Shown one piece after another: positions 2,236 through 53,268 of a DNA stretch of 64,000 nucleotides. The stretch is from positions 2,767-66,766 of the IMG/VR virus record IMGVR_UViG_3300044695_005266, one strand, 5' to 3'. The stretch comes from a virus. Numbering within the stretch: the stretch's first letter is position 1; each line of letters begins with the position of its first letter. The notes under the pieces are model-generated. The model was given only the letters and a program-made list of their open reading frames with translations. It did no database searches and had not been told where the DNA came from. Made by a program: the position numbers and the translations under genes.

Positions 2236-2958
2236 ATGAACCCATTCGACAACATTGAAAGCGAAGTGGCGGCAATGCTCGCCAAGATCACACCCATGTC
2301 TCCAGAGCAGGCGCGGGAGCGAGACTTCAACACCTTCATCCTTCCCGTTCTTGTTGAGGCGGGATTCGACAAGCGAGCGTGCAAAGACGACTTGCTCAAC
2401 AGCGGCATGGATTCCCGCAACCACGCGCAGCGCAAAGCGGCGAGGGAATGCCTCGACTTCCTCAAGGACACAGGCGCGGTGGTCGCGCTGGTTGGCCCGC
2501 GAGGGACAGGCAAGACGAGCATCGCCGCGCAGATCGTGCAGAAGTGGGCGTGGGCCGATCACCTTGGCTACATGGCGGGCAAGGGCGTGGGCCGACGCCG
2601 CATGGTCATTTACGAGAAAACCACGGGCCTGATCTCGAAGCTGAAGGCGATGTATGCGGACTTCGGGACAATCGAAATGGACAGGATGGAGCGGAGGCTG
2701 AACGCTCTGGTGAAGGCCGAACTGCTGATCCTCGACGAACTGCATGAAGTTTCAGAGGACTCGAAACACAAGGATCGCATCCTGACGGACATCGTGGACA
2801 GACGATACGCAGCGCAGCGGGACACGATCCTCATCAGCAACCAGACTTCCAAGGAGTTCAAGGCCACGATCAACCCCTCGATCATGAGTCGGATGCAGGA
2901 GCACGGAGGAGTGATCCCGTGCGAGTGGGCATCGTTTCGAGAACAGACTGCCGTATGA
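2236..2958 (+). CDS. DnaC/IstB-like AAA+ helicase loader
   Basis: Walker A GPRGTGKT, Walker B LLILDE, DRRY, TILISN, IMSRM. Confidence 0.9.
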   Translation: MNPFDNIESEVAAMLAKITPMSPEQARERDFNTFILPVLVEAGFDKRACKDDLLNSGMDSRNHAQRKAARECLDFLKDTGAVVALVGPRGTGKTSIAAQIVQKWAWADHLGYMAGKGVGRRRMVIYEKTTGLISKLKAMYADFGTIEMDRMERRLNALVKAELLILDELHEVSEDSKHKDRILTDIVDRRYAAQRDTILISNQTSKEFKATINPSIMSRMQEHGGVIPCEWASFREQTAV

Positions 2959-2997
2959 ACACTTATGGCTTTTTTCGGTAACAGTATATGAGGATAG

Positions 2998-3035
2998 GAT
3001 GTAGAACGAGTTCTACATCGCGCCCGTTCTACATC
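2998..3035. repeat. 10-bp motif in inverted plus direct arrangement
   Basis: GATGTAGAAC-GA-GTTCTACATC perfect inverted repeat, with a third copy GTTCTACATC at 3026. Confidence 0.7.
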
Positions 3036-3127
3036 GAACGCCCCCGACGCCCCAAGGACGTTCTTGTAACGTAGGGACGTAAATCCATCTTGACATTCTC
3101 CCCTAGATACCAGCTATTTACATTGCA

Positions 3128-3277
3128 ATGACTGCAATCCAACTACCTATCGGCGCACTCGCTGGCCCTGATCTCGAAACCGAGATCACGGATCAGTTGC
3201 TCATCGAGCAGGGTGACGCGCTGCTTGCTGCTCTGGAAGCGGAGCATGAGCGCAAGGAAGTCGAGTTCGTGATCTAG
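3128..3277 (+). CDS. Small acidic protein (49 aa)
   Basis: Hand-translated MTAIQLPIGALAGPDLETEITDQLL...; TTGACA at 3090 upstream. Confidence 0.5.
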   Translation: MTAIQLPIGALAGPDLETEITDQLLIEQGDALLAALEAEHERKEVEFVI

Positions 3278-3318
3278 GCTTGACCTGAACGAACTCGAAA
3301 ACGCACGCCCGTCCCCAA

Positions 3319-3783
3319 ATGACGGGAATGGACGTAGCGAAGTTGATGAAACCAGAGACGGCGCGAGTGATCGTGGCGGACTTGGATATGTTCGATCCGC
3401 GAGGCATCATCCTGATCTCGTATGCCACGGCACACGGCGGGACGGATCTGGCGAAACTTCGGGCCGCGCATGAGTGCGCCCATGCAATCCAGTGGGTTCA
3501 AGGCCGAGCGGCATTCGTGTTCTGGCGCATGATGAGTCCGCTGGTGTGGCCGCTCCTCGGCGTATCGTTGGCACTGGCGGGCTTGATCTCGCGCACGCAT
3601 ACGCTTCCCGCCCTTTCGTTCTGCGCGGTGGTGGCTGTCCTGCGATATTACGCGACGATGTGGCTGGAGAAGGATGCGTGGAAAATCGCGTTCGAGTGGC
3701 TGAAAGCGTATGGAGTTCTTGACGACGAGAAAAAGGCGAGGCAGGATGCAGAGGCGATGCTGAACTCCTACCGCACCCGATGA
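3319..3783 (+). CDS. Membrane zinc metallopeptidase, YugP/Zn_peptidase_2-like
   Basis: AAHECAHAIQ (HExxH), two hydrophobic helices, downstream LEKDAW..A..WL motif. Confidence 0.7.
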   Translation: MTGMDVAKLMKPETARVIVADLDMFDPRGIILISYATAHGGTDLAKLRAAHECAHAIQWVQGRAAFVFWRMMSPLVWPLLGVSLALAGLISRTHTLPALSFCAVVAVLRYYATMWLEKDAWKIAFEWLKAYGVLDDEKKARQDAEAMLNSYRTR

Positions 3784-6071
3784 TCCGCTGCCTGATACCA
3801 GACCGTCTCTACATCGCAGATCAGGAAGGATGCAAATGCACCCGCCCTCAGTATCAGGAAAAGACAGCGGCACGGATTCACGCCTGCAAACACCCCTGCC
3901 ACATGGAGAAGTTCGGGCAACTCGCCCCGTCAGATCGCCGATACCTTGGCGGGGAGGAGGCGGGCGAACTCTACCTGAACCTGATTGACGCGAAGGAACC
4001 GCTCTTTCAGCGAAACAGTTTCGAGTATTTCCTACGGTTCGCACGGGATCACTGGCTCGACCAGAGGCCAATCTTCATCCACTGCAACAAAGGCCAGAGC
4101 AGAGCACCGACGCTCGCGCTCCTGTTCATGGCGAAATGTTTGAAGGTGATTCCGAACACCAGCTACGACGATGCGTGGGACGAGTTTCAAAAGTGCTACG
4201 GAGAATACAAACCGAACTCAGGCATCGAGCAATGGATGCGCGAGAACTGGAAATCCATTCAGGAAAAACCCGTGGCCTACTCAGGCGGAGCGCGGAGGAA
4301 GTTCGACCAATACACCCCGCCAGACACCAGCAACATCAGCGCAGAGGAAGCGGTGGCACTGATTCAAGGCGCACCCATCGTCCACTTCTCAACGATGGTG
4401 ACAATCGAGAACAAGAAGCACGAAAGGGAGAAGCCCGTAGCCAACATCCTGCAAATGCGCGTGGACGAAGCCTACGGGCTATGTATGCAACGAGGCATCG
4501 CCCCTCGACTGCAAATGTTGAAGCCCCGCCAGACAGGATGCTCCACGATATGCGGACACCTTTGCTATCACCACGCGAGAACGCATCATGTGGACGGACT
4601 GATCATCGCGGACGAGGGAAGCCGCACGATGAAAGTCTGGCAGATCTTCACGGAGTATTCCGACCACGATTCCTTCCCGTGGGACTCGACGTTCAAATAC
4701 GACACGAAGAAAGCGAGCATCGCGTATGCGGACGGGCAAGTGGGCCAATGGGAATACGACACCGCGAACGACCCGAAGGCGGGAATCTCTGGCACCCGTC
4801 AGGTCATCTGGTATTCCGAAGCCGCCCGTTACGCGAAGCACGGAGCAAGAACGGACGTGAAAGTGATCACCGCATCGCTCGCATCACTCGCCCAAGTGCC
4901 GCACTCGCTCGCCATTGCGGAGAGCACGGCGGAAGGCGCGACAGGGTGGTTCTACAACAACTGGCAGAAAGCGGTGACGCTGGAGGACTTTCGCAACGGC
5001 ATCCACGGGAACGGTTGGATCAAAATCTTCGCAGCATGGTTCGAGTTCGCCGAGCACACACTTCCGCGGGCCGCGCACACCGAACACTATTTCCACACCG
5101 ACTACACAAGCAGAGAGAAGCGCGGCATCCAGCTTTACGGATGGGATGCGAACCAACTCGCGTGGCGGCGGCACACCATCGAGAACGGATGCGACGGCGA
5201 CGAATCGATCTTCGATCAGGATTATCCTGAGAACGACATGGACTGCTTCTTGTCATCAGGCCGACCACGATTCGACGATGATGGAGTGACGCGCCTCGAA
5301 ATGATGGCGGACGCGGAACACGGATTCGCGGATCTCGGCGTGCTGACAGGCGACACGCAGAGCGTCATGTTCACGCCAGACAAAACAAACCCGTGGCTAT
5401 GGCTGAAGGAAAAGCCGATAGCAGGATGCTCCTACCTTGCGTTCATCGATCCTTGCACGGGAGAACAGAGCAGGGGCGCGAAAGATCCCGACTCGCACGC
5501 AGCGGGAGTGATTCGCATGGCATACATTGACGAAGGTGGAAGGTTCTACCCTGACGAGTTGGTGGCGACGATTGACGTTCGGAACGGGTGCCGATGGGAC
5601 GACAGCATGATAGCGCAGCGGGTAGTGCTCATGGCGAATTACTTTGGCGGGTGCATGATTGTTCCAGAGACAGGGAACGGACTTGGAGTTCTTGTGAAGT
5701 TGCGGGACTACGGAGCGGTCATCTACCAAAGGCAAAAGGAGGATGCGCTGATCCCGGGCAAGTTCATCCCGACGATGGGATGGGAAACCAATCAAGCCAC
5801 ACGCGAACTTTGGGTAGGTGCGATGGCCGACGCGATACGCGAGCAGGAGAAAGCGTTCAACTGCTGCTACAAACCAGCCGTGAAAGAAATGCGGACATTC
5901 GTGATCGACGATAGGGGCAAAGCACAGGCCAAAGGAGGAGCGCACGACGACTGGATTGCAGGCATCGGGATCGCGCTCGCGTGCCGCAAGTTCGCACGGG
6001 TGTATATGCCAAAAAGTTCGTTCACAGACTTCCGCGAAAAAAACAAACGGCAGAGCGCGTTTTCGTATTGA
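3780..6071 (+). CDS. terL: Terminase large subunit with N-terminal dual-specificity (CX5R) phosphatase domain
   Basis: IFIHCNKGQSRAPT; terminase motifs LKPRQTGCST, WYSEAA, ESTAEG, FIDPCTG and HDDWI. Confidence 0.9.
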   Translation: MIRCLIPDRLYIADQEGCKCTRPQYQEKTAARIHACKHPCHMEKFGQLAPSDRRYLGGEEAGELYLNLIDAKEPLFQRNSFEYFLRFARDHWLDQRPIFIHCNKGQSRAPTLALLFMAKCLKVIPNTSYDDAWDEFQKCYGEYKPNSGIEQWMRENWKSIQEKPVAYSGGARRKFDQYTPPDTSNISAEEAVALIQGAPIVHFSTMVTIENKKHEREKPVANILQMRVDEAYGLCMQRGIAPRLQMLKPRQTGCSTICGHLCYHHARTHHVDGLIIADEGSRTMKVWQIFTEYSDHDSFPWDSTFKYDTKKASIAYADGQVGQWEYDTANDPKAGISGTRQVIWYSEAARYAKHGARTDVKVITASLASLAQVPHSLAIAESTAEGATGWFYNNWQKAVTLEDFRNGIHGNGWIKIFAAWFEFAEHTLPRAAHTEHYFHTDYTSREKRGIQLYGWDANQLAWRRHTIENGCDGDESIFDQDYPENDMDCFLSSGRPRFDDDGVTRLEMMADAEHGFADLGVLTGDTQSVMFTPDKTNPWLWLKEKPIAGCSYLAFIDPCTGEQSRGAKDPDSHAAGVIRMAYIDEGGRFYPDELVATIDVRNGCRWDDSMIAQRVVLMANYFGGCMIVPETGNGLGVLVKLRDYGAVIYQRQKEDALIPGKFIPTMGWETNQATRELWVGAMADAIREQEKAFNCCYKPAVKEMRTFVIDDRGKAQAKGGAHDDWIAGIGIALACRKFARVYMPKSSFTDFREKNKRQSAFSY

Positions 6072-6103
6072 CTCCGCGCTTTCGTTGAAGGAGGCGCAGC
6101 GGC

Positions 6104-7939
6104 ATGGCTTACCGCACCGACACTCTTCAGAACGAAAAACAGGGCGAAGCTCGCGCAAAGGGCGAGATCAAACACGCGAAAGTCCTACGAGACGAAACAG
6201 GAAAGACGATTCCAGCGGCGAACCTCAAAGCCGAAATCGCGCAATTCTACAAGGACATCGAGAAGCATCCCGCATCCACCAGTTTCCGCATGGGCCTCCC
6301 TGACAAGAAAAACTTGAAGGCAATCAGTTCCGCATCGCCACAGCAGTTGGAGCAATGGACGAACACATTCGCGCAACGGAAGGCGGACTACGAGCAACAG
6401 ATCAAGGCAATCGCGCCCGCCGCGCAGCCGAAGGCAGTCGTCCCGCCCGCATCCGCCGTGCCAACGCCGAGCAACACGACGACGAACCCACGGGCGGCAT
6501 CCGCGCCAGTAGCAGCGGCCACGATAGAACGACTTGGAAACAAGGCAAAAGCTCTCTCTGGATATGCGGAAAAGTCGGCTGGAGCAGCGGCGGCATTGAA
6601 AGCCGCACGCGACAAACTGCCAGCAACGTCACGACAAAAAAACCAGACACAAGCAGCAAAACCAACAGACAACACGGCGGCATCCGTTGGAATGGGCGCA
6701 CCAATAGGAGGCATAGCGACAGGCGCGGCGATGAAAATGGCGCAGCAGGCAACGCAGCAACCAGACACGCTATCAGACAAGGCCGACGCGCTCATTCAGA
6801 AGTTCGACAACCAGACCACACAGGCAACAAAGGATGCGAATAAAGCAGTTCAAAGCCAAGTATCGCAAGCAGCATCCCCTCTGAATCAACTTCAACCCTT
6901 CGACGAAGTGAAAGCGATGGAGTATCAGATGCGCCGCGGAGGATACCAGATACAGGAGGGCGGACTCAAAAAGGACGGCGCAGGCTACCACGTCATTGAC
7001 GAGCAGGGGCGCAAGCTCATGGTCGCACCCACGCAAGCGATGCGGCGGGCTGTAATGGAGAAGATGAGTGGGATAGACAAGCTCGACAACACCCTCAAGG
7101 CAGGCCAGACGATGAGCGACATAGGCCGCGCAAACATGGGACTCGCCCCGCAACAGACCGCGCAGGCAGGCGGAGTTCAAACCACGGATTTTCGCCCCGT
7201 GAACACCGAGCAGAACCCGCGAGGGAAAGTTTTTATGGACGCTCTGGCGAACGAGTTTAAGGAGCAGACGTATCGTGAGCTTGACGCAAAGGCCAACGGC
7301 ACCCAGCTCGACCCGAAGATGCAGACACGCGAATACGCGCACGCGATGGCAGCGGCGGCGGACGCGCAGAGCAGGCAGGTTCAACCAGCACCACTCGCGG
7401 CATCCGCGCCAAATCCAGCGGGGACAGTTCGCCGAGTTCTCACCGACCCAAAATACGGCGGAACAGGAGTCGGTTATGCAACCGAAACGCCAAAGGCAAA
7501 CGTCACGCCAGAGCAATACGCCAACCGCCCACAGGCACCGCAGCCTTCCACGGGAAACCCCGCAGTTGTTGGAACCAACAGCGCAGGAGTAGCGGCAACG
7601 CCTAATGTAGCGGCACCGAAAAGCGAAGCCGCAGATCCGTTTTCGCCGCTCGTTCCAGCATCGCCAAACTTCGTCGGCCCCGCAACCCCCCCACAACAGC
7701 TTACGAACCTTCAATCACAGACAGGATTGCAGACACAAGCAAACGAAACCGAGAACGCACAGAAAGCGCAGGCGCAAGCGACGGCGGATCAAACGCGGAA
7801 AACTCAGCAGGAAATCGAGGACGAAAAGAAAAGACTCAGCCAAGCACAAATTGCAAACAAACCCGCTCTCGTTCAAAACGTAGCAGCCGCAAACGATAGC
7901 GAGGTCTATAAAGGCTTACGCACAGCTTCAGGACAGTAA
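6104..7939 (+). CDS. Ala/Gln/Pro-rich low-complexity protein, probable internal virion protein
   Basis: 611-aa ORF between terL and the giant gene; function inferred from composition and position only. Confidence 0.6.
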   Translation: MAYRTDTLQNEKQGEARAKGEIKHAKVLRDETGKTIPAANLKAEIAQFYKDIEKHPASTSFRMGLPDKKNLKAISSASPQQLEQWTNTFAQRKADYEQQIKAIAPAAQPKAVVPPASAVPTPSNTTTNPRAASAPVAAATIERLGNKAKALSGYAEKSAGAAAALKAARDKLPATSRQKNQTQAAKPTDNTAASVGMGAPIGGIATGAAMKMAQQATQQPDTLSDKADALIQKFDNQTTQATKDANKAVQSQVSQAASPLNQLQPFDEVKAMEYQMRRGGYQIQEGGLKKDGAGYHVIDEQGRKLMVAPTQAMRRAVMEKMSGIDKLDNTLKAGQTMSDIGRANMGLAPQQTAQAGGVQTTDFRPVNTEQNPRGKVFMDALANEFKEQTYRELDAKANGTQLDPKMQTREYAHAMAAAADAQSRQVQPAPLAASAPNPAGTVRRVLTDPKYGGTGVGYATETPKANVTPEQYANRPQAPQPSTGNPAVVGTNSAGVAATPNVAAPKSEAADPFSPLVPASPNFVGPATPPQQLTNLQSQTGLQTQANETENAQKAQAQATADQTRKTQQEIEDEKKRLSQAQIANKPALVQNVAAANDSEVYKGLRTASGQ

Positions 7940-7953
7940 CCCTTTAGAAAAAC

Positions 7954-10900
7954 ATGGCATCACCATACGACGACCTTTTGACAGCGGAGGGGCCAGCGGG
8001 AGACTCCGCACGCTCACTCGCAGAACAAGACACGCAAGTTCAGGCAGGGGAAACCTACGCTGATACTTCAAAGCGCACAGAATACGAAGCGGCAGCGCAG
8101 GCCCGCATCCAAGTCCGCAAGGGCAAGGAACTCGCCTCACGCGGGCTTGTGCCCTACACCGACGCGCAGGGCGGAGTAAGCGCGGTCACGGACAAAGGCG
8201 GGGCGGCACTCACGAAATACGACCCGAAGAACCAGATCGCGTATGACTCGACAGGCAACCCTCAAAAGGTGGACTTTGACCAGTTCGGAAACCCGCAGAC
8301 AAGCGACCCCTTCGCGGGCCTCGCGCCGACGCTCGACGAAAAGACGGGCGAGAAGTATCTGATTGCGCCGGGGCTACCGTGGAGGCACGTAGGCACGGAT
8401 GCACAGGTGAAGAAAAAGGTGGAGTTCGCCAAAGAGGACAAGATGCTTGGCGAGGCTTCATCCACACTCGGACGAAAGCTGAACATAGACGAGAAGCAGC
8501 TAAACATCATCGAGAAGAACAAGAAGGAAGCCGCGCAACGTCTCGCCACAATGGGCATCGGCATCGAGAGCGAAGATGGTAGCCTGCCAAGCGGCGAGCA
8601 ACTAGCCGCAAAGATCAACGCCCACTTTGATTCCGAAATGCAGTCAGGCACCGCGACGAAGAAAGGGTTCTTCGGACTCGGCGGTGAAACCGACGAAGCG
8701 AAAGCCGAGCAGCAACAGATAGGGCAAAAACGCGCATCCGCTCTTGCGATTGCAGGCGAATACGCCAAGCACTACAACGACGGCAGGGCGATACAGCAAG
8801 GACAGGACGCGACACTTGCAAGACGGACGCAGATCGAGGCAGAAAGACTCAGGCGCGACGAGGAACTGCTACGGGATCAGGGCATGGGTGGATTACTCGG
8901 AGCGGAGGAACCCGCGCAGCCAACACAAACAAAGCAACCAGCGGCGGGACTGATTAAAGAGGGCAATATCGATCTCAATAATCGTCCCATCGTGAAGAAC
9001 GAAGATGGAACGATCAGCACGGTTCGTTCGATTGGCGTAGAAGTAGGCGGGAAGGAAGTTCTGATCCCAACCGTCAGTGATGACGGAAGGGTGATGAGCA
9101 ACGAGGAGGCGGTAAAAACATTCAAGCAGACAGGGAAGCACCTTGGAGTATTCGACACGCCAGAGAGCGCAAACGCCTACGCCGAGAAACTTCACAAAGA
9201 GCAAAACGTTCAATACACAGCAAAGGCAGCGGAGCAATCCAAACAGGATACGAAGCGCGGCATGGCGGCAATGGATGCCGTGAAGAAACTGCCACCGCTC
9301 GACATCGGCGACAAGATGAGCGACATTGGAAGCAACCCTCAACAGTTGGTTCCGTTCCTTTCTGGCGCATCGGAAATCAAGCATCTGGTTCAGGTCAAAC
9401 TCGCGGCGAACAGGCTGGAGGAGTCGGCCAAAACAAACTCAGATCCAAGCGCGGACGATCTTTCGCTGGTCAAAGCATTCGTGGAGAACAGCCAGCGCGA
9501 CACGACCTTTGGATACAAGGTTATGTCCGTGCTTTCCGCGCTGCCAGCATTCGCGGGAGAACTCGCGGCGACAGGCGGCATCTACACGGCGGCACAAAAG
9601 GCAACGCTCAAACTCGGCGCAAAGGCTTTGGAGAAGTTCGGCAGCGAGGCGGGCGCGAAACTCTTGGCACAACTCACAGAGCGGGCAATGGAGAAAGCGG
9701 CGGGCCTCGCCGTGAAAGGAACCATTGCAAAGACGGGCGCGATGAAAGCGGTGGAACTCGGCGCACGCAGCGCGGCTGCAATCGCTGGATCGCTGGCGCA
9801 AACCATACCAGCGGCGGGCCTGAACATCGCAGCGGAAACCGTGGAGAGAATGATCCCAAACATATCATTCAGCGAGGACGACAAGGGGAAGATCAACTAC
9901 CTGCTCGAAAACGCTGGCGACGACTTCACTTCCGCTCTCCAGAAATCATTCAAGAGTCAGTTCACAGAAGTTGCATCGGAAAAGACAGGCGGGATGCTCG
10001 CGTTCATCCCCGGCGCAGACAAACTGAAGCTACTCAAAGCAGGAGTGATGCGGCGTTGGTTCGGAATCAACCCAACAGCATCCCCTTCAACCTTTGCAAA
10101 AATGGTGCAGCGGGCAGGCTGGCATGGAATCATTGGGGAGGTATTCGAGGAGCGCGTGGGCGACGTGATGAAGGCGGGCCTTGGACTCCAAGAATGGAAG
10201 CACGTAATCCCGACATGGGAACAGTTTTTTGTGGAAGTCGCAGCGTTCGGTGTCCCGTCAGCGGCGGGCACAGCCTACGGCGCATACCGCAACAAGAAGT
10301 ATCAGGCCGCGGTCAAGGACATGGCGAACCAGTATCAGGAGCGCGAGCACGCGATTGGGCAAGTGGAGCCACCAGCAGGGGCCGAACCAGATCCAACATC
10401 GGAAGTTATCAGCACTATGATGCAGGGGAAGAACGCGCAGACGGCATCCTTCCTCGTCGGCCAGCATCCAGAATCCGCAAAGCAGACTTCCCGCATCATC
10501 GCCGAGACAATCCCGATGGACGTAGAGGACAGGCAAGACGCGACAGAGTTCATGTCCACGGCAGGCCCGCACACGTTTATCGCGCAGCATATCGGCAACC
10601 AAATGGTGTCGCAAGGTGTGATGACGGAAGCGGCGAACGAAATAGACTCCACACTGGAAGATGGCGGAGTCGAACAGCCAGAGCGCAGGGCAGCAATCGT
10701 GAACAATGCCGTTGGCTCAACCGCAATGGCGATGACAGTCAGGCAAGTGACGAGCGGAGCACCGATTACGAACAAGCTCGCCTACGAGTCCATGAAGGAG
10801 GCTGGAATCTTCACAGAGGAAACCGACGCAGCGGGCACGGTCACACGCTCGCTCGACAGGCGGGCAATCCAGCTTTTACCAACCAGCATCGCAGAGCGTA

Positions 10901-13900
10901 TATCTAACAACTTTTCCGAGTTGAAGGTAAGTAACACTCAGGACAGAACTCCGCTCACCGCGCACAAAGCCGCGATACAGTCAGGGCGCAGTCTCGTTCA
11001 CACGATGGCGCAGAGGCTTTCCGTATGGGAAGCCCCGCCCCCTCGTGACGCAGACCTTCCCGACCTTCCCGACGACGAGGTTACACCGCCCGCGAACCCA
11101 ATGGATGCCGAGCACGCCAATGTCGCCAATCTGGTTCAGGGAGTGATAACCAAGCACGCGGACAGACTGCGAGTTCTAGGGCACCCCGACAAGGCCACAG
11201 ACGAGAAAGGCACCCGCAAGGGCAAGTCAGGGTTACGCAACTTTGGCGGAATCATTCACCTTGACGCAGAGGCGTTATACGAAAGCACGAAAAATCTCAC
11301 GCCAGAGGAGCGTGCGGCATTTATCGAGAAAGCGACGGAGGAAGAAATTGACCACGCGGAAACCGTGGCATGGGCCTACGACAGAACCGCTACTCCAGAA
11401 GAACGCAAAAGGCGGCAGGCCAAGGTAAAGAAACTACTCAAGACCGAAGCTGGAATAGCGAAGGGACTGCAAGACGCCCGCAACGATTGGGGCACGCTCA
11501 CTGACGAAGAGAAGTCGTTTGAAGTCTGGCGTGCAATTATGCAGATGGCGCGTGATCCGAACAGCAGAACACCGCTGACGGAGAGCACTTGGCAGATGAT
11601 CGAGGAGTTTGTCGAATGGCTCAGGGGCCGTGTCGGAAATCTTTCTACCAACGCCAAGGAGTTGATGGGCGAACTGGAAACTTGGCTCGCCGAGCACAAA
11701 GCCGAACTGGACAAGGACAAGGGCAATGCCGACGCCGAAAAAGAGAGGGCGGACAAGGAGAAGGCCGAACAGGAGAAAGCCGAACAGGAAAAAGCCGACG
11801 CCGAGAAAGCCGAAAAGGAAAAAGCTGAGAAGGACAAGGCGGACTCCGAAAAGGCCGAACAGGAGAAGGCTGAAAAGGAGAAGGCGGATAAAGAAAAAGC
11901 TGAGAAGGAAAAAGCCGAAAAAGACAAAGCCGACGCCGAAAAGGACAAGCCGAATCCTCCGAAGGACGAAGATCAAAAGCCGCCGAAGGACGAGGAAAAG
12001 GACAAGCCGAAACCACCAGAGGCGGGAGGAAAGAGAAAAGTGGAGGGAGCAAAAGATTGGGAGAACGCTGGCATCGATCTATTTGCCGCCGCCCCAACAA
12101 AATTATCGCTTGCTGCCGCTAAACCAGAAAGCAAGTTCGGAACCAACGTGGGAGATTTGATAATCGCCGCCCAAGCAGGCACGCTAGACCTGAAGAATCC
12201 AGAGGTTCTGGCGAAACTCAACGGAATAGGGGAGGGAATACTGAGCGAAGCAGAGGAGAACCCAAGTGTTAGAACCCCTGAGGGATTCACGGCGAGATTC
12301 TTAGCGTTCTTGAAGAAGTTCGGAAAAGAAGATGCCCTGACAGGGCGGGTAGTCCACATAGTTTGGGGGCTGGCTGACGAAACCCTGCCAGAAGTATCCA
12401 GAACTGAGTTTGAGACAATACTTGAAGATCTTCGCAACCCGAAGGAGAAAACCTACCGCTGGATCACTCCCGAAATGGAGAAGGCGGGATGGAAGGAAAA
12501 GTTCATCAACACGGGACTCATCCCGCAGCATCAAATCACGACGCCAGAGGGGATGGTTTTTACCGCCGTGGAGGACGAAGCGCACCCCGGCTTCGGAGGC
12601 TACAACTTCCTCGTCACGGATAGGAACTTTGCGCCCGAAAAAGAAGCTGACCTTGAGGACGGATCGACAGCATGGGTGAAGGACGGGAACAAGTATGCTT
12701 TCAAGCAGATCGAATCGGCACGGAAATACGCCAACCAAAAGGAAGCGGAGAAACCCCCACGGGAATACAGCAAATACGAACCACTGCCGCCAACAGCAGA
12801 GGGATATTTCCCTACCACGCAAAGCAACGACGAATCACTCCCGAATGACTTCCCCGGCAAAGCGGAAAGCCCCAAGCTCGCCAATGTAGCGGCAGCGGAG
12901 GATCTCATTGCTCAAGTGAAGCTGGAGTTCGGCCCGCTCTGGAGCAGGGTAGGAATCACCGTAGCTGAAGGAGATCCAAACGCAAAGGCATTGGCCTACG
13001 TGAAAGGAAACGGATTCAAGGAAATCTTCGTAGTCACACCGAAACTCCTCTACGCGCTCATGGACAGCGCACACCCCACCGCGCTCGCCAGAAACATCAT
13101 GTATCACGAAACGATACACGCGATGTTCAACAAAGTGATCTTCATGGAAGTCAGGGCCATGTCGCCAAGCCAACGCGAATCATTGGCGAAGAAACTCGAA
13201 ATCGAACTCTCGGCAGGAACCGATGAGGATCAGCAGCAGGAACTCTTTCTCGCTTACCACGCCAGAATACTCAACGACCTTGGAAAAGAGTTGCATCACC
13301 TACACCCACGCGAAGCGAAGCTTGCGGACGAACTCTACCAGAGCGGGCGCGGCAATCTACTCGGCGCGGGCAACCTTGCACATGAAGTGTTCAGGCAGGC
13401 CATTCAGAACCGTGTCTTTGGAAGGTTCGATGAGGCATGGCATACAGGCATATTCACATCGCAAATATCCAGCATTTTAACCCGCGTTCTCGCGTGGATC
13501 AAACGCATCTTCACGGGCAAGGAACTCCGCAAAAGCCCGCTGTTCGAGAACTACGTTGGCCGAGTCGAGCGTGTCCTCTTGAAGAATGGGTATGACCGCA
13601 TCATAACGACTTCCGAAGATTACTCAGAGGCGATCAAGGAAAGGCTTTTGGCTGGAATCAAGATCACCACTCCCGAACTTCAGTTGATGGGTTCTGGCCT
13701 GAACATGAACAAAACCGAACTGCTGTATTGGGCGCAGCGCGGAGTGTTCAGGGCCGCACAGGTAATATCTCAGCATCCAATACTTCCCACGGAACTGATC
13801 GTGGACAGGCTATCGCAACTGGACAAGGACTCGCCAGAGATCACACAGGACGCATCACGGGAGACGAATCTGAAGCCAGTAGTGGCGTATTACGCGAGCA

Positions 13901-16900
13901 GGCTCGCAAACGCGGCGGGAGAGAAAATACAGTGCGCCATCGTTTCCGACGACCTGATGCCGCACTTGGAGCGGGACAACCGCGAGCAACTGACCCACGC
14001 ATATTCAGAGGACTTGGGGCAGAAGGAACTACTGGAAAGCATCGGCGTAACGTCCGCGCCGTCCATGAACTCCTTGGAGGAGAATCAGATCAAGCACACA
14101 CACAAGTCGCTGATTTACTCGACCAACGAAACCGCGATTGCCGACACGGAACCAGAGCAGACAGTTAAGATCGGCTCCGTGGAGTTCAAATCGCGGAACA
14201 TGAACTTCATCAACGCGCTCAACCTACTGGACGAACAACTTCACTCGGCGGGTTCAGCGGTTCTTGTGCTGCCGTCCGTGGACGGAACCACGCCCGAAGA
14301 ACGCCTCGCGGCCTACCAGAGCGAAGATTGGAAAAACTTCTCCAGTATCCTCTATCGGAATTACGGTGTAGCGAGCCACGTTACAGTCAGCGATGCACTG
14401 CTGAATACCGACTCGCCACCCCTTGACATTATCTACATAAAGAGGAAAACTGGTTCAGCTTCGATTAGGACACCACACAAGGAAGCACCACCCATAATTT
14501 CGACAGTCGCAGAACTCAGACAGAAACTATACGATCATGAGCACCCAACTACAAAAGCACCCAAAGCTGGCGGCAATGCTGGAGGAACACGGAATGACCG
14601 TGATGAACCGCCTAAGCCACCAACTAGAGGAAACCCGAAAGATGGTAATGGCGGACGAGATAACGGAGACGACAATAGCGGAGGAAGTGATGGGTTGCCT
14701 CCCAAGGAGGGCGGTGGAGAAACTGGCGGCGGCAGTGAATCGGGGGGTAAGCGTGGAGGTATTTCAGTCGATCTTGGGAGACGAACTCACGAATCTGGAC
14801 TCGATGTAGAGACGCTGGTTCAGCCAGACGAGGGCGACGACTTCCAATCTCTGTATAGGGGAGAGTCCACCGTTAATCCCGGCAAAACACTCACGCCGAA
14901 AAACCTTGTCCAAAAACAAAAGAATGTTCTCGAACAGGTAAAGGAAGAGGTTGGAGACATAGACGAGTTCGTGATCAAGGAACTTGGATACAAAGACCGA
15001 GCGGAACTCGGAAAACGGCTCATGTCCGAGCAAGTGGACGCGGTTGCGCTTTCGATATGGAACCACCGCAGGGGCATAGCAACCATCAACGGGGATCAGA
15101 CAGGGATCGGAAAAGGGCGCGTTTTGGCGGCACTGATGAAGTGGTGCTTGAGGAACGACCTGACTCCGATCTTTATGACGGAGAAGCCGAACCTGTTCAT
15201 GGATATGCTGCGCGATGCGAACAACATCGGCGCGTTTTTTGAGGGAGATACCGACAGGATTGAACCGTTTATCATAGCGAACGATGTCAAGCTCTCCACA
15301 GAAATCGAGGGCAAGACACTGCCGTATAATACACCCGACGACCAAGTGAAGAACAAGGTGTGGGGAATTGCAAAGGACGGGCAACTTCCGAAGGGATACA
15401 ACGTAATCTTCGTCAATTATTCACAGATAGACCAAGAAATACTCCCGCCAGAACACTACGAGTTTCCAGACCCGAACACGCCAGTAACATTACTTTCGTC
15501 AGAGGACAGGGCGATTCGGAAGGACACAATTAGGACGCAGGCTTTACGGGCACTTGCGCCCAAGGCGATGTTGCTGATGGACGAGTCGCACTTTGCGGCA
15601 GGAGAATCGGCAAGCGAATCAGAGGATGGCAAGCGGGTGGACAAGATGCTCGGCATCATGGATAAGATGAGCGGAGTATATTACTCCTCCGCCACCTACG
15701 CCAAACGCGCCTCCTCAATTCCGCTCTACTATCGCACGGCAATCTCACGGAGCGGCATCGAGGCAAAGAAGATCGGAGAAATCATGCACGTAGGCGGGGC
15801 ACCGCTACAACAGGAAGTGGCCTCAATGCTCGCGGAAAGCTCGATGTTCAGAAGGGAGCGAAGTATGCGCGGTGTCTCGTTCGGCATTAAACAGACCGAG
15901 CAATACAGGGAGCGCGACAGGGAGATCGGAAACCAATTCTCAGACATGGTTCAGGAAGTCGCCAGATACCAGAACAACCTAAAGGAAAACCTGAGCAAAC
16001 TAGAGGCGGCGATGCAGGAAAAAGGGATGTGTCAGCAAAAGGACTCCGCCGACAAACCGATGGGTAAAAAAGTAAAGCTGAGTTCATATAATTTTGGAAG
16101 ATCGTTTTTCCACGTAATCGAAACGCTCCTGTTCTCCATGAAAGCCGACGCCGTTGCGGACGACGCAATCGAGCGCGTGAAGAACGGAAATAAAAAGAAC
16201 CCGCTCACAGAAGAACAGTTGCACTTGATGAACCAGATCGAGGCGGCAGCGATGAAGCGCGGAGGAGATCCGTTGAAAGAAAGGTTTTCAAAATACGGCA
16301 CGACTGAACCGTTCCACGCGCAGGACATTCCAGAGGGAGACATGAACCTGCTCTACGCCTCAATGACGAGGCCAGAGGAAATGGAATACCGAACGCACAG
16401 GGATAGCCAAAGACCGCAAAAGGTAGTCATAGCGATTAACCAGACGGGCGAGGCAACGCTGGAAGCTCTGAAAGAAATGGGACTGGATAAAACCTACAAC
16501 TCGGCACTGGAGCGGTATATGAACAAGATCGCGGAGGGGATAGCGGTCAAGTGGGAAGGAGGCTCAACCAAGAAAAACCTCCTCGGCCCCAACGCCGCCT
16601 CTTTGTTGTGGGACACATTGCCAAACCTGCATGGCGAGAACGTATCGGATATGCCCGAATACAAGAAGTTGCTTTCGGACGCACGCGCCGACTACGAGAA
16701 ACTTGTTGGACTTGTGCGAAGCAACGAAGAACTCAAGAAACTACCCGTCTCGCCGATAGACCACATCACAGACAGGCTGAAAAAGGCAAGTATCGAGTTC
16801 GGCGAATATACAAGTCGCACCAACCAGTTAAAGGAGGGCGTTATTATAGACAGACCCGACGACGAGAGTTCGCCAAAAAACAGAGGGCGGATGAACAAGA

Positions 16901-19900
16901 AGTTCAACAACGAGGATCTGGACGTGATGATCATTAACGCATCGGGTGCGGTTGGTATCTCCCTTCATTCATCGCGGGACGACTCTATAAATCTAAAGCA
17001 GCGCGTCATGTTCATCATGTCGCCTATCACTGAGATCAACGGGTTTCAGCAGATCATCGGACGCATCATGCGAACTGGAATGGTGCAGCGGCCAGAATAC
17101 CTACTCATCCAGACAACGCTACCGCACGAAACCCGAAAGGCATCATTCCTACGGGCGAAGCTGTCCAAGCTGAACGCATCCACTACCAGCAACAAGGACA
17201 CGGCGATGACAGGCTCCGTGGAACTACCAGACTTCTTCAACCAAATCGGCGACGATGTTGCGCTGGAGACGCTACTGGAGCACCCGCAGGTTCTTGCCGA
17301 AATGCCCCTAAAGTTTCCGCCGAATATGTTGCCGCCAATGAAGGCGGCATTACTCAATCAGTATTACAAAGCAAAATCAACATGGGAAGGCGGGTTTGTC
17401 AGAACCTTCAGCGGATGGATGAGCACCGTGTCGCCCGACACGATGGACGCATTCTGGAGCGATTTCGGCGAGCGATTCAAAGGCAGGCTGCGCGGGCTTA
17501 TCGAGAACGGGGAAGATCCATTCGCCACGAACGAGAGGGACTTTCAAGCCGAGTTGGTTGCGGCAAACACAATCTTCGACGAAGTGGACGCTGACGTATC
17601 CTTCGGGCAAAAAGCTGTCATTGAAAAACTGAAGGTCAAAGAGGGCGGCGAGCCGATGAGCACGGACGACGCATACGAAGAGGCAAACAAGAACGCCCGC
17701 CGCTGGCTCGAAAAACCGAAGGAGAAATACAGCGGAACCAAACCACTCGACCCGAACGAACGGCGCAGGCGCGACGAAGAAAACTTGCGGCAGGACAGGC
17801 GAACCGAAGTGGACAAGATTCTCGACGAATGGGAAAACAAGAAATCGGACGAAATCAAAGTCGCACAGGATTCCGCACGCGCACGCTTCGAGAAGAAGTG
17901 GAAAGCGGTTCTCGGAAGGCGCGAGGAACGCGACAAACAAATCCGCAATGGAAAGCCGAACGAACTCCAGCAGCTACTCGGTCAAACCATAAAAGAAAAA
18001 ACCGAGGCTGAATACAAAGAGGAGATCGACGCGCTCAATAAAGAGGAGGAGACGGAGCACGAACGCGATCTGGCGCACGCCTTAGTCGTGGCGGAGAGGG
18101 GTGTCGCAAGACCCTACGAGAAGGCCCGCGAAAACATCATCACGGCACTCAACATCGTCGCATCACCAAGGCACGCCAATACATTCCAAGTAGGAATCGG
18201 CGCGGGCGAGGACGCCGAGCGAGTTCTTGCGATATGCACCGACATCCTGCTCCGTCCTGATAGCCCTACAAGTTCAGCGGATCACCTTCTCATTTTCCGC
18301 GTGAATGATGGGCGCAACAAGGGAATGGTGAAAGTTCCACTTTCTCAGCTTGCCAGCATCATCCGTTGGCAACCCAACAGCCCGCAGTTCGGCGGCAACT
18401 ACGACTTCCAATCTGATTGGGACAAGACCATGCGGAGGGAGCGGATTCGCTACGTGGTAACGGGCAACGCGATTGGCGGCTACAAGGCACTGCTCGACAG
18501 AAAGGTGAAAGGCAAAATGTCCTTCATCACGTTCACCCGAAATGACGGGGAGATCTCGAAAGGCATTCTATTGCCAGCAAACTTCACAGGATTCACGGAG
18601 AGGAAAATAACAACAGGCTCCGAAATGCGGCAAGCATTGGAAATCAGAAGGGCCACGCTCGCGCTTGCAGAAGCGCAAGGCTCGATGGTTTTCGACCCAT
18701 ATCGCAGGACGGTGAAAATATCAGTATCCGCAAAAGCGACAAACACCGCCGCCCAATCCATCATAAACGATAGGGCACTCCTCACGCACCTAATCAACAC
18801 CAGTGGAAGTCGGACATGGAACGTATCGCCAAGAAAGCCAGCAACGGCCACATTCCACATCACCAACGCAATCTCCGTGTTCGACGCACTTGCGAGACTG
18901 AAGATCACGGTGAACGAACCCACCGCGCCGGGGGCCGACCTCACATCCTATCCATCGCAAGACACCGATCCAGACGATGACGGGCCAGACGGCGGAGGCG
19001 GAGGGAGATCGCCGAACCTCAACGCCGCCACTCCGAACAAGCAGGCTGGCCCCGCCGCCGACGCGAGCAGGAAGGACGTAACCACAGCCATGATCGCCAG
19101 ACTCAAAAAGCTGTTCGACATGAGCGAAGGGGAGCCAACCCAAACATCGGGCGCGTGGTTCTCGGCGGAAATCACCGACGAGCACGGGGAGATAACAGCA
19201 CGCGGACTCACGGTGAAGATTCCAAACGAAAAGCTGCAAGGTGACGTGACGGAAGCAGACGCCGAAATTACAGGAGACTTCAAAAGCGAATCATCCGTCC
19301 CGCCGCAGTCCAAGGCAACGAGAGCAACTGGCGTGGCGAACGGAGTCGAAGCGCAGGGGCACTACGAACTCATCGAGGCTGACGACCTGAAGAAACTCAT
19401 TCAGCGGGAAGTCGGCGATGCACAGAACCGCGACAGAACCACGAACGAAGCGTCCAAGCGGCAAATTGAAATGATTCGGCAAAAGCCAGACCCAAGTATG
19501 CTCACCGAAAACTCCGTGTCATTGACGGGAGCACCAAGCATTGACGACGAAGCAATCTTGGCAGGCAACGGGCGGGCGGACGGTGTGACGCAAGCATGGG
19601 ACACAAACCCGACAGGCATTAAGCCATACCGCGAAAGCATTGAAGAGTCCGCGAAACGATTGGGCCTGCAAAGCAAGCTGGCAGGAATGAAGCAACCCGT
19701 CTTGGTGTTCAGAGTCACAGGCTACAAGAACGGCACACGCCGCGACTTCATCACGCAATCCAATCCGAAAAGCATCGGCCTGAACGAGAACACGGTTGAG
19801 GAGGCACTGAACGATTACGAAGCACTTGCCGCAACGCCGAACATCGTAGAGTTCACCGAGGGCGGAGATCTCACGGCGCAATCATTGCAGATGGTGGCAA

Positions 19901-22900
19901 GCGTGATGGAGAAGAAACTTCGCCCGCTCAAGGAGGACTCGAAAGGCAAGTTCAACTTGGCGGACGGCACACGCCGCGTGCAGGCGGCGATGCTCGCTGG
20001 CATGGCGCGGAAGGCGGGACTCAAGTATGGCGAACTCGCGCAGGTCATGGAGAGCGAAAACGGCAAGCGTGCGATTTCCACCATCCTAGCGAGGGCGGGA
20101 CGACTCGCGGGCCTCGACTCCGACCTTTCACTCGCAAGCCCAATCATGGCGGCACTGGCGGCATTCCAGCGCGGAATAGCGGCGGTGAAGGGAGAGCAAT
20201 ACAAGAGTCTGGAGGAATGGTTCAGCAACAGAAAGATGGAGTTGATCAAGGACGACCTGAGTGCAGAGGGAGAAGCCTTGCTCTCGTTGTTCTCGCGCTC
20301 GCAGAGATCCGCCAAGGAACTTGCCACCGTTTTAGACGCATATTTAGTGCTGGCAAAAGAAGAACAAAATCAGCGTGACTTGGATAAAGAAACGGGCGAT
20401 ATGTTCGGAAATGAACGCGCCAAAGTCAGTCCCTTCACCCTCCTCTCAAAAATCACGAACACCGCGAGTGCCGAGAACGGCGAACTCTTTACTGAGGGAG
20501 GCAGCAGCAAGCCTGAAAATCCCGCTCCCGCCGCCGAGGACAAAGTAGAACCTCCCGCCGAGGAAAAGCCTGAACCTCCGAAAGAGGAAGAAAAGCAGAC
20601 CCCGCTCAAGGAGCAGCCAGAGGACACAGACGGATCGATTCCTGAAGAACCAGATTTCGGCGCGGACACCGAGGAAGGAATGATCGGCAGACGGCCAATC
20701 AAAGTCAGCGACAAACCGACACCCGAATACAAAGGGCAAACAGTAGGCACACGCGAGGCGCAAAAATCACTCGAAGCAATCGGCGCAGCGGTAGGCAAAA
20801 CGGTTCCGTTCCAAGTCGGCAGAGTAAAAGGGAAACAGAGCGGCACGTTCAAGGAGCATCCCGAAGTGGTCAGGATGCGGACAGCACTCAGCCTCGACGT
20901 GGCCGCGCATGAGACAGGGCATCTTCTCGCCAAGGTTCTCTACAAAACCCTGCGAATCGGTTCACAGAAAGGCGTTGTGCCAAACAACGTATTGCGCGAA
21001 CTAAAAAAACTCGGCGAAGATTTATACGGCGGAGCGAAGCCAATCGGCAGCTACACCAGCGAGGGATTCGCTGAGTTCTGGAGACTTTACTTCACCACGG
21101 ACAACGCTGAAGCAGAGGCACCCAACGCATACAAGTATTTTACGGAAACCGTTCTCCCGCTGTTCGCAGAAGTGGAGAGCGCAGTGAAGCAGGCCCGCGA
21201 AGCATTCACACAATACCGCGCACAAGGAGTCAGGAATAAAGCATCGGCGGACGTGGTTGATCCGAATAGCTCGGCAAACAAGCTGAAGCGTTTCAAGCAG
21301 TCCATGTCTCGGCCTGAACTGATCAGGAAGTGGGTGGACGAACTCGAACCGATACGCCAGATGGTAGCGGAGGCGGAAGGAAAGCTAGGCGACTCACTCC
21401 CGATTGACAGCAACCCATACGCAATGGCGAGCGCACTGCGCGGCACGGCAAAACTTGTGGCAGCGTATATGAATGAGAAGGCGATGCGCGACTTCGCTGG
21501 AAACATTACAGGGCAGGGACTCTCGGAAATCATGGCAATCGTGAAGGGCAACGAGTCCGACTTCATGCTGTTCCTTTGGGCGCACCACGCGCTTGAAAGA
21601 TGGGATGCGAACAAGAACCCCGGCCTCACGCGGGCGGAGGCACAGTTCCTCGTTGATGAACTCGGCAAAGATCCGAACTTCAACATCGCAGCGGACAAAT
21701 ACTGGAACTGGAACCGTGGCTTGATGAACTACGTGCGGGAGGCAAGCCCAAGCATCGCCCCGCTGATCGACAGCATCACGTCACGCTGGAAGAAATACAT
21801 CCCGCTCTCCCGCTGGTTTGAGCCGGGCGAAGTTCGCACCGCCATCCAAAGCGCACAAACAGGCGCAAGCACGGCACTCAAGAGCATCACCCGTTTCGGC
21901 TCAGGGCGCGAGATACTGGAGCCAATGCCAGTGATTCTGAACAACGCCGAGAAATGGATCGAACTCGCTCACAAGCGGGTGATTCTGGATGCTGTGATGA
22001 ATCTCAGGAAGATTGAAGGACTCGGCTTTCAAATCGAGGAAGTGCCGCGTGGCCTGAAAATGAACTCGCTCACCGTGGGCGACATTCGCGATCAGTTGGA
22101 GAAGATGGGCATGGATACCTCCACCGTGGAGGACGACGACATTCTCAACTACTTCACGCCGATGTCGAAGCCGAAGGGGAAAGACCCGATCATTTCCCAC
22201 TCCGTAGAAGTGATGAATCCCGAAACAGGGAAGAAGGAACTCAAGACAAAGTGGTTCTTCGTGGAGCCTCGCATCTTCGACGCACTGGAGGGCATTGACC
22301 TTTACAGGCTGCCAAAAGCACTGAACCTATTGCTCGGTTTCCCTGCCAGAATGTTCCGACTTGGAACCACGGGACTCCGCGCATCGTTCAGCTTCTTCAC
22401 CAACCCCGCCCGCGACTTGCCGACATTGCTCATGCAGTCCGACAGCAAGGCTAGTGCGCTCACACTGTTCGGATCATGGGTTCGCAGTTTCGGCGCACTA
22501 TGGAACCCGAACAGACTTCGCGGACAGAATCATCCGCTCATAGATATGTTCGACAGGTTGGGCCTGCAAGTAGGCCAGCCGCTCGGACAGGACATCGATC
22601 CCTACAAGCAGCACCAATCCAAGAGTCTTTCAGGGCGCATGGTTCACAGGGCGCACAACGCAATCGAGACGCTTCAAAAACTGTTCTCCGTCAGCGAATC
22701 CGCCCCGCGCATTGCCGAAATGGAGCAGATTGCGAAAGACGTAGGTTGGGATTGGAAAGCAGGCGCACCGATAACCACCAAGCAGATGTATGCGATCATG
22801 CTCGCGGCCAAGAGATCCACGGTGGACTTCTCGGCGGCAGGCTCCTACGCGAAGGCTGTCAATCAGGCCATCCCGTTCTTCAACGCGACCATTCAGGGTG

Positions 22901-53080: not shown

Positions 53081-53268
53081 AAATAACCGCCATGTCCGAC
53101 GCATACGACAACTACGACGACCCTGATCCCGATAACCTGCGCCATGAGTTCGGGAAGCCGAAGCGCAAGGGATTCGATTGCGCCGATGGATTTTGCGGGG
53201 CTGGCGATTGCCGGAAGTGCAATGGCGCGTATGCAGAGAAACGGGAGGAAGATGAAAACGCACCTTGA
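53077..53268 (+). CDS. Small Cys-cluster protein
   Basis: CADGFCGAGDCRKC. Confidence 0.55.
   Translation: MKITAMSDAYDNYDDPDPDNLRHEFGKPKRKGFDCADGFCGAGDCRKCNGAYAEKREEDENAP

Follow-up and report, generated by a model that had tools for sequence, protein, structure and literature searches.

The fusion gene and its two halves

The subject of this report is a gene in which a phosphatase domain is joined to the large subunit of terminase (TerL), the DNA-packaging motor of phages. The gene lies in a 64,000-nucleotide stretch of viral DNA, referred to here as the window, that encompasses bases 2767-66766 of the 66,766-base IMG/VR record IMGVR_UViG_3300044695_005266, for which CheckV gives a completeness of 100%. 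It occupies positions 3780-6071 of the + strand, stop codon included, begins with ATG and encodes 763 amino acids (aa). The list of open reading frames (ORFs) for the window has the phosphatase and terminase halves together in one unbroken frame, and the start codon shares the letters ATGA (3780-3783) with the stop of an upstream 154-aa gene. A scan of 2800-8200 yielded no promoter-like site, and the fusion ORF itself is free of terminator-like sites on the + strand.

The fusion is a genuine single gene. An identical copy is present on a second IMG/VR contig (L002), which was the sole match when related loci were searched for with the single protein; an alignment query was needed to find the others. 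The stretch is present, whole or in part, in 20 public runs, with at least half of the sampled words in 17 of them; the runs come from 16 studies of lake, freshwater and wastewater metagenomes, and two of them may be those from which the record derives. For the junction itself, contigs from four other lake metagenome runs (X3, X4, X5 and X7, belonging to four studies) were compared with 3700-6100. They cover 4049-5048, 3700-4809, 4051-4590 and 4184-4478 across the linker with 0 other letters and 0 gaps, so that the coverage check proposed in the original prediction reveals no stop or frameshift splitting the gene, and the single uninterrupted ORF that it had described stands. The probability that two genes were merged by an error of assembly or sequencing is practically nil, as the identical second contig, the bridging contigs and the same architecture in 52 of 84 relatives from many assemblies all speak against such an artefact, which is ruled out.

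The first 160 residues (3780-4259, + strand) carry a dual-specificity phosphatase (DSP) fold. A family hidden Markov model (HMM) covers aa 6-160 with an E-value of 3e-61. The Pfam model DSPc (PF00782) matches below its gathering cut-off of 33.5 bits, both with the whole protein (aa 81-153, 19.9 bits, E 6.7e-4) and with the N-terminal domain alone (23.1 bits, E 6.8e-5). Three relatives lie above that cut-off (P0170, 38.2 bits; P0223, 40.2; P0245, 41.4), and 22 of 24 aligned family members have a DSPc match at E ≤ 0.01. NCBIfam offered no model for the window protein, its N-terminal domain or the three stand-alone DSPs that were tried. As a single sequence, the domain gives only weak phmmer matches in the PDB (best E 0.21); the family profile matches 52 PDB sequences at E ≤ 0.01, all of DSP or protein tyrosine phosphatase (PTP) type, with DUSP3/VHR the best (E 1.3e-6).

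An AlphaFold2 model of aa 1-187, built with 42 homologues as the alignment, has a mean predicted local distance difference test score (pLDDT) of 93.7 and a predicted template-modelling score (pTM) of 0.87, with confidence declining only past residue 160. With this model Foldseek finds 144 PDB matches at E ≤ 1e-3 and, among the matches listed, all are dual-specificity phosphatases or entries containing them. At the top are DUSP22 (E 1.3e-6, with query- and target-normalised template-modelling scores, TMq and TMt, of 0.56 and 0.65), DUSP8, DUSP5 and MKP5, and vaccinia VH1 (3cm3) is also found (E 2.7e-5). Judged by its profile matches and its model, aa 1-160 is a DUSP/VH1-type cysteine phosphatase domain.

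The features that define DUSPs are their fold, a shallow pocket, a P-loop of the form HCxxGxxR(S/T) and an Asp in the beta4-alpha2 loop, as listed in a review of microbial DUSPs (PMC13577060). The P-loop of the window protein is HCNKGQSR (aa 101-108; 4080-4103, + strand; cac tgc aac aaa ggc cag agc aga), with Cys102 as the nucleophile and Arg108, the phosphate clamp, at its end. In the alignment of fused forms His101, Ser107 and Arg108 are invariant and Cys102 and Gly105 are kept in at least 90%; the signature HCx5R is intact in 49 of the 54 fused domains and in 150 of the 158 stand-alone ones. The candidate general acid is Asp70, the last residue of the D-loop LNLID (aa 66-70; 3975-3989, + strand). 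Leu66 and Asn67 are invariant in the fused alignment, where Asp70 is kept in at least 90%, and Asp70 is invariant in the stand-alone alignment. The model places it in the loop that connects strand 63-66 to helix 78-93, matching the beta4-alpha2 position of the review, and a HMMER alignment sets it two residues off the Asp of VHR. Thus the CX5R loop is found exactly where the original prediction had placed it, its suggested general acid in LNLIDA sits in a conserved D-loop, and the N-terminal domain does model as a PTP/DSP fold.

A further motif, HACKHPCH (aa 34-41; 3879-3902, + strand), is particular to the family: His34 and Cys40 are invariant in the fused forms, and when stand-alone forms are included Lys37 is invariant and Pro39 and His41 nearly so. 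The residue that follows Arg108 is Ala109, where Ser or Thr is usual. The two residues after the Arg are Ala-Pro in 130 of 211 family members, and pairs that begin with Ser are found in 71 of the 211. Ala at this position is modulating rather than family-excluding, with PRL and SEX4 as precedents. The domain is near neutral in charge (median isoelectric point, pI, 6.2-6.5), and its P-loop often contains Glu.

From the intact Cys102, Arg108 and Asp70, the domain is predicted, with good confidence, to be catalytically competent, and the presence of Cys102 sets the window copy apart from the pseudophosphatases. An RNA 5'-triphosphatase of the BVP/PIR1/DUSP11 type was also considered and is disfavoured. 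Cysteine phosphatases of this type are not known to have the general-acid Asp, and the RNA phosphatase DUSP11 (4jmj) comes only 31st among the Foldseek matches, with a TMq of 0.37 against 0.53-0.61 for the top-ranked protein DUSPs; both the conserved Asp and the nearest structural relatives therefore argue against it.

The phosphatase domain is followed by a variable linker (aa 161-189; 4260-4346, + strand), which is poorly predicted (pLDDT 57-83 over aa 161-187) and which ranges in 43 fused homologues from 12 to 161 aa, with a median of 30. The remainder is the large terminase, ATPase first and nuclease second (aa 190-757; 4347-6050, + strand). A family HMM spans aa 190-757, and among PHROGs the protein matches phrog_2, 'terminase large subunit' (aa 230-745, E 1.4e-10), and phrog_24361 (aa 607-744, E 2.2e-9). 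By tblastn it matches 40 phage records, and many among the 30 matches listed are annotated as terminase large subunit. In an alignment of 68 sequences, the motif KPRQTGCST (4521-4547, + strand), which we take to be Walker A-like, has invariant Lys248 and Arg250 and nearly invariant Gly253, Ser255 and Thr256, and Asp278 is nearly invariant in LIIADE (4599-4616, + strand), presumably the Walker B-like motif. In the nuclease region (5448-5951, + strand) Asp557, Asp571, Glu630 and Asp723-Asp724 are invariant, and from what is generally known of TerL we assume that they form the RNase H-like nuclease centre. The linker and the complete ATPase and nuclease motifs described in the original prediction are therefore present. 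The portal gene lies on the same strand at 23936-26146 (SU10_portal, PF23899, E 1.2e-10; phrog_1216), separated from TerL by two genes, one of which is a 5326-aa ORF, in what is a head-packaging module.

The original prediction had also suggested an internal start near aa 190-210, and this fared less well. In the window protein GAGGAA stands before a GTG at aa 192, and three other fused loci (L007, L008 and L009) have GAGG ahead of a GTG at aa 190, at a spacing that is apparently too short; the signal was not seen in the fused genes of L010 and L012, and is thus not conserved. Shine-Dalgarno (SD)-like motifs are present at only 5 of 27 inspected window genes, many starts being preceded by A/C-rich stretches. 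Directly upstream, the 154-aa gene (3319-3783, + strand) is Zn_peptidase_2-like (PF04298, E 4.5e-8). Other genes occupy this place in L007, L010 and L012, and the peptidase-like gene is not conserved before fused genes. When the genes upstream of TerL were inspected in 4 fused and 25 unfused loci, and likewise those beside the window gene, no recognisable small terminase was found, a failure that says little as small terminases are hard to recognise.

Distribution and history of the phosphatase domain

The fusion is found in only part of this TerL family. Among 5.8 billion clustered proteins, 84 relatives were found. By HMM, the N-terminal domain is recognised in 52 of them, one of which, P0058, retains no more than a vestige; the remaining 32 are plain TerLs that begin at approximately residue 186. 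In IMG/VR, 13 of 79 related loci are fused and 66 unfused, and no DSP gene lies in the flanks of any of the 66, up to 6 kb on each side. Among cultured phages (INPHARED), none of 40 matching records matches the N-terminal domain, the similarity being confined to the TerL part at 22-27% identity. In prokaryote genomes, with one genome per species, none of the 47 related prophage-like loci is fused, and none has a DSP gene within 4 kb. This survey agrees with the earlier expectation that large terminases usually carry no such domain.

The idea that unfused relatives hold the phosphatase as a separate gene was rejected. Beyond the 66 and 47 loci just described, whole records with a plain TerL hold no homologue in any of five cases, two of them 100% complete, and the same search recovered one copy in each of five known carriers, which served as the control. 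The loci covered by this check were other than the closest unfused relatives (P0013, P0016, P0022, P0028 and others), which come from Logan or ENA.

All 47 loci from bacterial genomes (L124-L170) belong to records of Verrucomicrobiota, including Chthoniobacteraceae, Prosthecobacter and Phragmitibacter among others, which makes this the probable host phylum of the TerL family. The membership of Phragmitibacter and Brevifollis was checked in the taxonomy, and Chthoniobacter and Spartobacteria are assumed by us to belong there as well. The hosts of the window's TerL family are thus probably Verrucomicrobiota, a statement that applies to the family and not to this phage itself.

Two observations on the relatives may be recorded here. 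Six fused relatives of approximately 1112-1119 aa (P0003, P0006, P0007, P0009, P0031 and P0051; loci L008, L009, L013 and L019) are longer than the window protein, and in four of the six a LAGLIDADG intein-type domain (PF14528) is on record in the TerL half; the window copy is without it. In two unfused loci (L054:4356-5228 and L058:946-1806) a calcineurin-like metallophosphoesterase is encoded two genes upstream of TerL, and may be a non-homologous phosphoesterase in a similar position.

Judged from the divergence of its sequence, the fused domain appears to be constrained by purifying selection to the same degree as TerL itself. When fused homologues are compared in 903 pairs, identities average 45.1% in the DSP and 46.0% in TerL, and the two are correlated (r = 0.65). 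On the TerL trees the fused/unfused label switches at least 6-7 times. The changes forced by starred branches number 6 on a FastTree tree of 87 rows and 4 on an IQ-TREE quick tree of 77 rows, from which 10 long or near-identical rows had been dropped. An approximately unbiased (AU) test rejects a single split (delta log-likelihood 427.8, p 3.6e-135), the tested group having been named after the tree was seen. The DSP tree unites 53 of the 54 TerL-fused domains in one group of 56 rows, with a support of 87 that is not starred, and the degenerate P0057 lies elsewhere on a long branch; on a second DSP tree 14 fused representatives and one stand-alone row, L088, form a single group with a support of 93. 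P0058 looks like a loss in progress. The simplest reading of these trees is one early fusion, followed by at least four losses. Repeated loss, together with plain-TerL relatives that lack any homologue, argues against a core role in packaging chemistry and indicates that the domain is in all likelihood accessory, and dispensable for packaging in this TerL family.

The nucleophile is replaced in five of the 54 fused domains, by Asp in P0030 and P0037, by Ser in P0048 and P0057 and by Gly in P0051. Some of these copies nevertheless remain conserved: P0030 and P0048 are 55.8% identical in the DSP and 57.5% in TerL, and P0037 is approximately 60% identical to P0046 and P0047 in the DSP against 41% in TerL. 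Their conservation suggests that binding of a phospho-ligand can suffice.

In the phosphatase family most members stand alone, with a length of 150-210 aa. A profile built from such free homologues retrieves 1878 cluster representatives at E ≤ 1e-3, of which 386 are at E ≤ 1e-30, and among the best 150 hits 138 are of 260 aa or less and 12 are longer. One of the long proteins, P0170 (968 aa), combines a DSP domain with a TerL of phrog_6681. This TerL neither matches the window-family HMM nor aligns with the window TerL; the DSP part alone aligns (35% identity, E 5e-23). On the trees the P0170 domain is placed among the free copies, which makes this a second, independent fusion.

Free copies also tend to lie near terminases. 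The 39 stand-alone loci of IMG/VR reduce to 30 clusters at 70% identity, and a TerL lies within two genes of the DSP in eight of these (L097/L106, L108, L112, L114, L115/116, L117, L118/119 and L123) and within 5 kb in 15. Our rough chance expectation for genomes of 40-90 kb is about 5% for the two-gene distance and 11-25% for the distance of 5 kb. The counts derive from a scan of three genes per side in 23 stand-alone loci and from a listing of ORFs of at least 350 aa in all 39, of which 61 remained once exact duplicates and those covered by the first scan had been removed; 46 of these were scanned, near-duplicate loci being left out, and short or split terminases would escape such a survey. 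The neighbouring TerLs belong to varied PHROG families (2, 38, 36964/5902, 2666 and 6681), and the copies next to a TerL do not make up a single lineage but are spread across the DSP tree. In the cultured Tunturiibacter phage Tunturi_3, which has a circular genome of 97,608 bp, gp146 is the DSP and is followed by gp147, gp1 (TerL) and gp2 (portal). The old fusion, the second fusion and the adjacent free copies together constitute a Rosetta-stone signal, which points to a functional link between the DSP family and TerL.

In the loci L112 and L114 the TerL (593-594 aa; L112:5875-7653 and L114:5594-7375) has an HNH-endonuclease-like N-terminal region (phrog_1271), the free DSP is just upstream of it and a glycosyltransferase is encoded a few genes downstream. 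The DSP gene of Vibrio phage 1.077.O has a gene for a HAD-type phosphatase as its neighbour, and a metallophosphatase is encoded another three genes upstream.

What the phosphatase domain may do

The original prediction had proposed three possible roles, namely regulation of packaging, processing of DNA ends and a counter to a kinase-based or terminase-sensing host defence, and the present data change no more than the relative odds of these. The reading that we favour, with a probability of roughly 0.4, is that the substrate is a phosphoprotein at the packaging complex and that the phosphatase is carried there by TerL. The domain would act as a phosphomonoesterase, brought by TerL to the packaging complex late in infection, where it would remove phosphate from a phosphoprotein; variants that lack the Cys would only clamp the phosphoprotein. 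A host response driven by a Ser/Thr/Tyr kinase could provide the target, in the form of a product or of the activation loop, or the target could be packaging or assembly proteins that carry phosphate; the outcome would be that DNA packaging is kept going. The conserved D-loop Asp implies a phosphomonoester with a poor leaving group, such as Ser, Thr or Tyr in a protein or a sugar hydroxyl, and not a phosphoanhydride. Between these, the near-neutral charge, the frequent Glu in the P-loop and the kinship with protein DUSPs favour a protein over a nucleic acid. A binding or trapping role is known from pseudophosphatases and fits the conserved Cys-less copies, and repeated loss is typical of accessory functions in the interaction with the host. 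If the substrate is indeed a phosphoprotein, phosphorylation control or kinase-based immunity would operate at the packaging step.

Several observations weigh against a phosphoprotein substrate. No kinase gene was found in the window with Pfam at E ≤ 1e-4, and a general counter-defence enzyme would need no tether to TerL. The neighbours of the free copies are mostly genes of DNA metabolism (resolvases, ERCC4 and HNH nucleases, helicases) or of sugar-nucleotide metabolism, and in P0245 (535 aa) the DSP is fused to a family 4 glycosyltransferase (GT4; Glycos_transf_1, E 3.4e-28); these associations point to a DNA or sugar phosphate rather than to a protein. Arg108 is followed by Ala and not by Ser or Thr, as in the 130 members counted above, and Ala after the P-loop Arg may slow turnover, as in the PRL phosphatases. 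Finally, the domain has decayed outright in P0057 and P0058.

The main rival, which we consider possible but doubtful, is that the enzyme is a phosphomonoesterase for sugar hydroxyls. The fused form would strip the terminal phosphate off the DNA end just cut by the TerL nuclease, and its relatives would act on sugar-phosphate intermediates. The packaged or ejected end would then be seen differently by ligases, exonucleases and end-sensing defences, and a DNA-end substrate, if true, would represent a new step of genome-end chemistry. This explanation gives the most direct reason for tethering, as a tether to TerL is most sensible for a substrate held by TerL itself. It also accommodates the free homologues that lie amid nucleases, resolvases, helicases and a P-loop kinase, as well as those in sugar loci. 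In L099:1209-10449 and L102:1743-8845 the DSP is found in the middle of a nonulosonic-acid-like sugar cluster with a DegT aminotransferase, a UDP-GlcNAc 2-epimerase, a cytidylyltransferase, a GFO/IDH/MocA oxidoreductase and a class-III aminotransferase, to which L102 adds the P-loop kinase. In L090 its neighbours are a methyltransferase, a GT4 and a GDP-mannose-dehydratase-like protein, and the DSP-GT4 protein P0245 belongs to the same picture. On the DSP tree the sugar-cluster copies are close kin of the TerL-adjacent ones. The conserved Asp suits a poor (alkoxide) leaving group, to judge from the catalytic mechanism as it is given in PMC13577060. However, the domain is not basic, its P-loop frequently contains Glu, and the nearest structures are protein DUSPs and not polynucleotide phosphatases. 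Moreover, relatives package their DNA without the domain, conserved Cys-less copies are not explained by purely catalytic end processing, and a dephosphorylated genome end has no established benefit.

It is also conceivable, if unlikely, that the fusion only secures late, stoichiometric co-expression, and that the phosphatase works at a distance from the motor, on a substrate that diffuses, such as a nucleotide, second messenger or metabolite. Proteolysis might set the domain free, or an internal start might yield plain TerL in addition. The long, variable and poorly predicted linker would be compatible with such an arrangement, as would the free-standing state of most family members, the GTG at aa 192 with its preceding GAGGAA and the Zn-peptidase-like gene directly upstream. 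Set against these features, the fusion persists through deep divergence in which its halves co-diverge, and the second, independent fusion is likewise to a TerL. The internal-start signal is not conserved, in a window where SD-like motifs are rare, and the peptidase-like gene is missing from other fused loci.

Rather unlikely, too, is that the TerL-borne phosphatase is a counter-defence guard against an immune sensor, either kinase-type or phosphorylation-dependent, that senses TerL. The phosphatase, on or beside TerL, would dephosphorylate the sensor on contact, Cys-to-Ser or Cys-to-Asp variants would trap it, and the hosts concerned would probably be Verrucomicrobiota. A guard of this kind would account for two fusions on unrelated terminases, for free copies that hug TerL, for the dispensability and frequent loss of the domain and for the persistence of dead copies.

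Also unlikely, in our estimation, is a non-catalytic adaptor, which would be either a binding module resembling a pseudophosphatase or a stand-in for the small terminase or DNA-recognition subunit that positions TerL. The Cys has been lost in five of 54 fused domains with the rest of the domain conserved in two lineages, no recognisable small terminase lies beside the gene, and in several phages the free gene occupies the slot just upstream of TerL. Nevertheless, HCx5R is kept in the great majority of fused and free domains alike (49 of 54 and 150 of 158), with Arg108 invariant and Asp70 present in at least 90%. One locus, L119, has both a small terminase and a DSP, and the difficulty of recognising small terminases means that their absence weighs little.

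Other genes of the window and comparison with known systems

Between the terminase and the portal, a single ORF of 5326 aa occupies 7954-23934 (+ strand). Marks of a large polyvalent protein are found in its second half, namely LPD38 (E 1.3e-26), a ParB domain of the ddrB-like kind and a helicase C domain of Strawberry-notch type, and it has the look of a polyvalent protein delivered with the virion. For a further giant ORF, of 2967 aa (38870-47773, + strand), neither Pfam nor PHROGs gave a match at the thresholds applied. A 185-aa ORF at 36132-36689 (+ strand), situated among genes without matches, matches the citrate synthase C-terminal domain (PF00285, E 2.5e-8), which is odd for a phage. 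There are three DNA methyltransferase genes, at 53144-53887 (+ strand), 62452-63153 (- strand) and 63241-63729 (- strand), and these comprise a C5-cytosine type, an MT-A70 type and one that matches phrog_799. A terminator-like hairpin lies at 2950-2969, after a DnaC-like loader gene. No tRNA genes were found, nor any terminal repeats of the record.

Few phage machines have been studied as thoroughly as the large terminase, for which, to our knowledge, no phosphatase partner is known. Literature searches on terminase with dual-specificity, tyrosine or other phosphatase gave no paper that describes the fusion, as judged mostly by titles and the first lines of abstracts. The main text of the 2025 review of microbial DUSPs (PMC13577060) is without the words 'phage', 'bacteriophage' and 'terminase'. 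A phage genome report, in the passage concerned, merely lists a putative phosphatase gene (PMC10671443), and that enzymes encoded beside terminase or portal may be packaged, or may counter immunity directed against the packaging apparatus, is put forward in PMC9503650 as a general idea only. The main text of the Tunturi phage paper never mentions a phosphatase, and its supplementary Table S3 may name gp146. A functional link between a DSP phosphatase and TerL thus appears to be undescribed so far. Such a link offers a handle for discovering the function of a largely unannotated family, with its 1878 cluster representatives, and two cultured phage-host systems carry family members, Tunturi_3 with Tunturiibacter psychrotolerans X5P2 and Vibrio phage 1.077.O with Enterovibrio norvegicus.

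The nearest known proteins are the dual-specificity phosphatases DUSP3/VHR, DUSP22, DUSP10 and VH1, which share the fold of the window domain (Foldseek probability 1.00; TMq 0.56-0.61, TMt 0.65-0.74). Like the atypical DUSPs, the domain has the P-loop HCxxGxxR and an Asp in the beta4-alpha2 loop approximately 31-32 residues ahead of the Cys. Vaccinia virus VH1 resembles it further in being a viral DSP, and is made late and packaged. However, the window domain is only 10-19% identical to atypical DUSPs, has Ala after the Arg, is covalently joined to the DNA-packaging motor, and belongs to a family that has its own HACKxPCH and GIExW motifs.

Within the family, the closest comparisons in cultured phages are Tunturi_3 gp146 and Vibrio phage 1.077.O gp32 (HMM E 3e-39 and 1e-45; 27-29% identity), the former two genes upstream of TerL on its circular map. 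In contrast to the window domain, both are free proteins of 165-169 aa that are annotated by domain name only, and the TerL of Tunturi_3 is from another family than that of the window. A minority of fused copies, with the Cys replaced and the domain still conserved, mirrors the pseudo- and slow phosphatases STYX and PRL, and we take the Arg-Ala-Pro that follows the P-loop to resemble PRL; in the window copy, by contrast, Cys102, Arg108 and Asp70 are intact.

TerL is known to tolerate extra modules, including inteins and an N-terminal HNH or additional ATPase module, and examples from this work are the HNH-like N-terminus in L112 and L114 and the extra N-terminal module in L115 and L119. These additions are DNA-acting or selfish elements, and none is a phosphatase.

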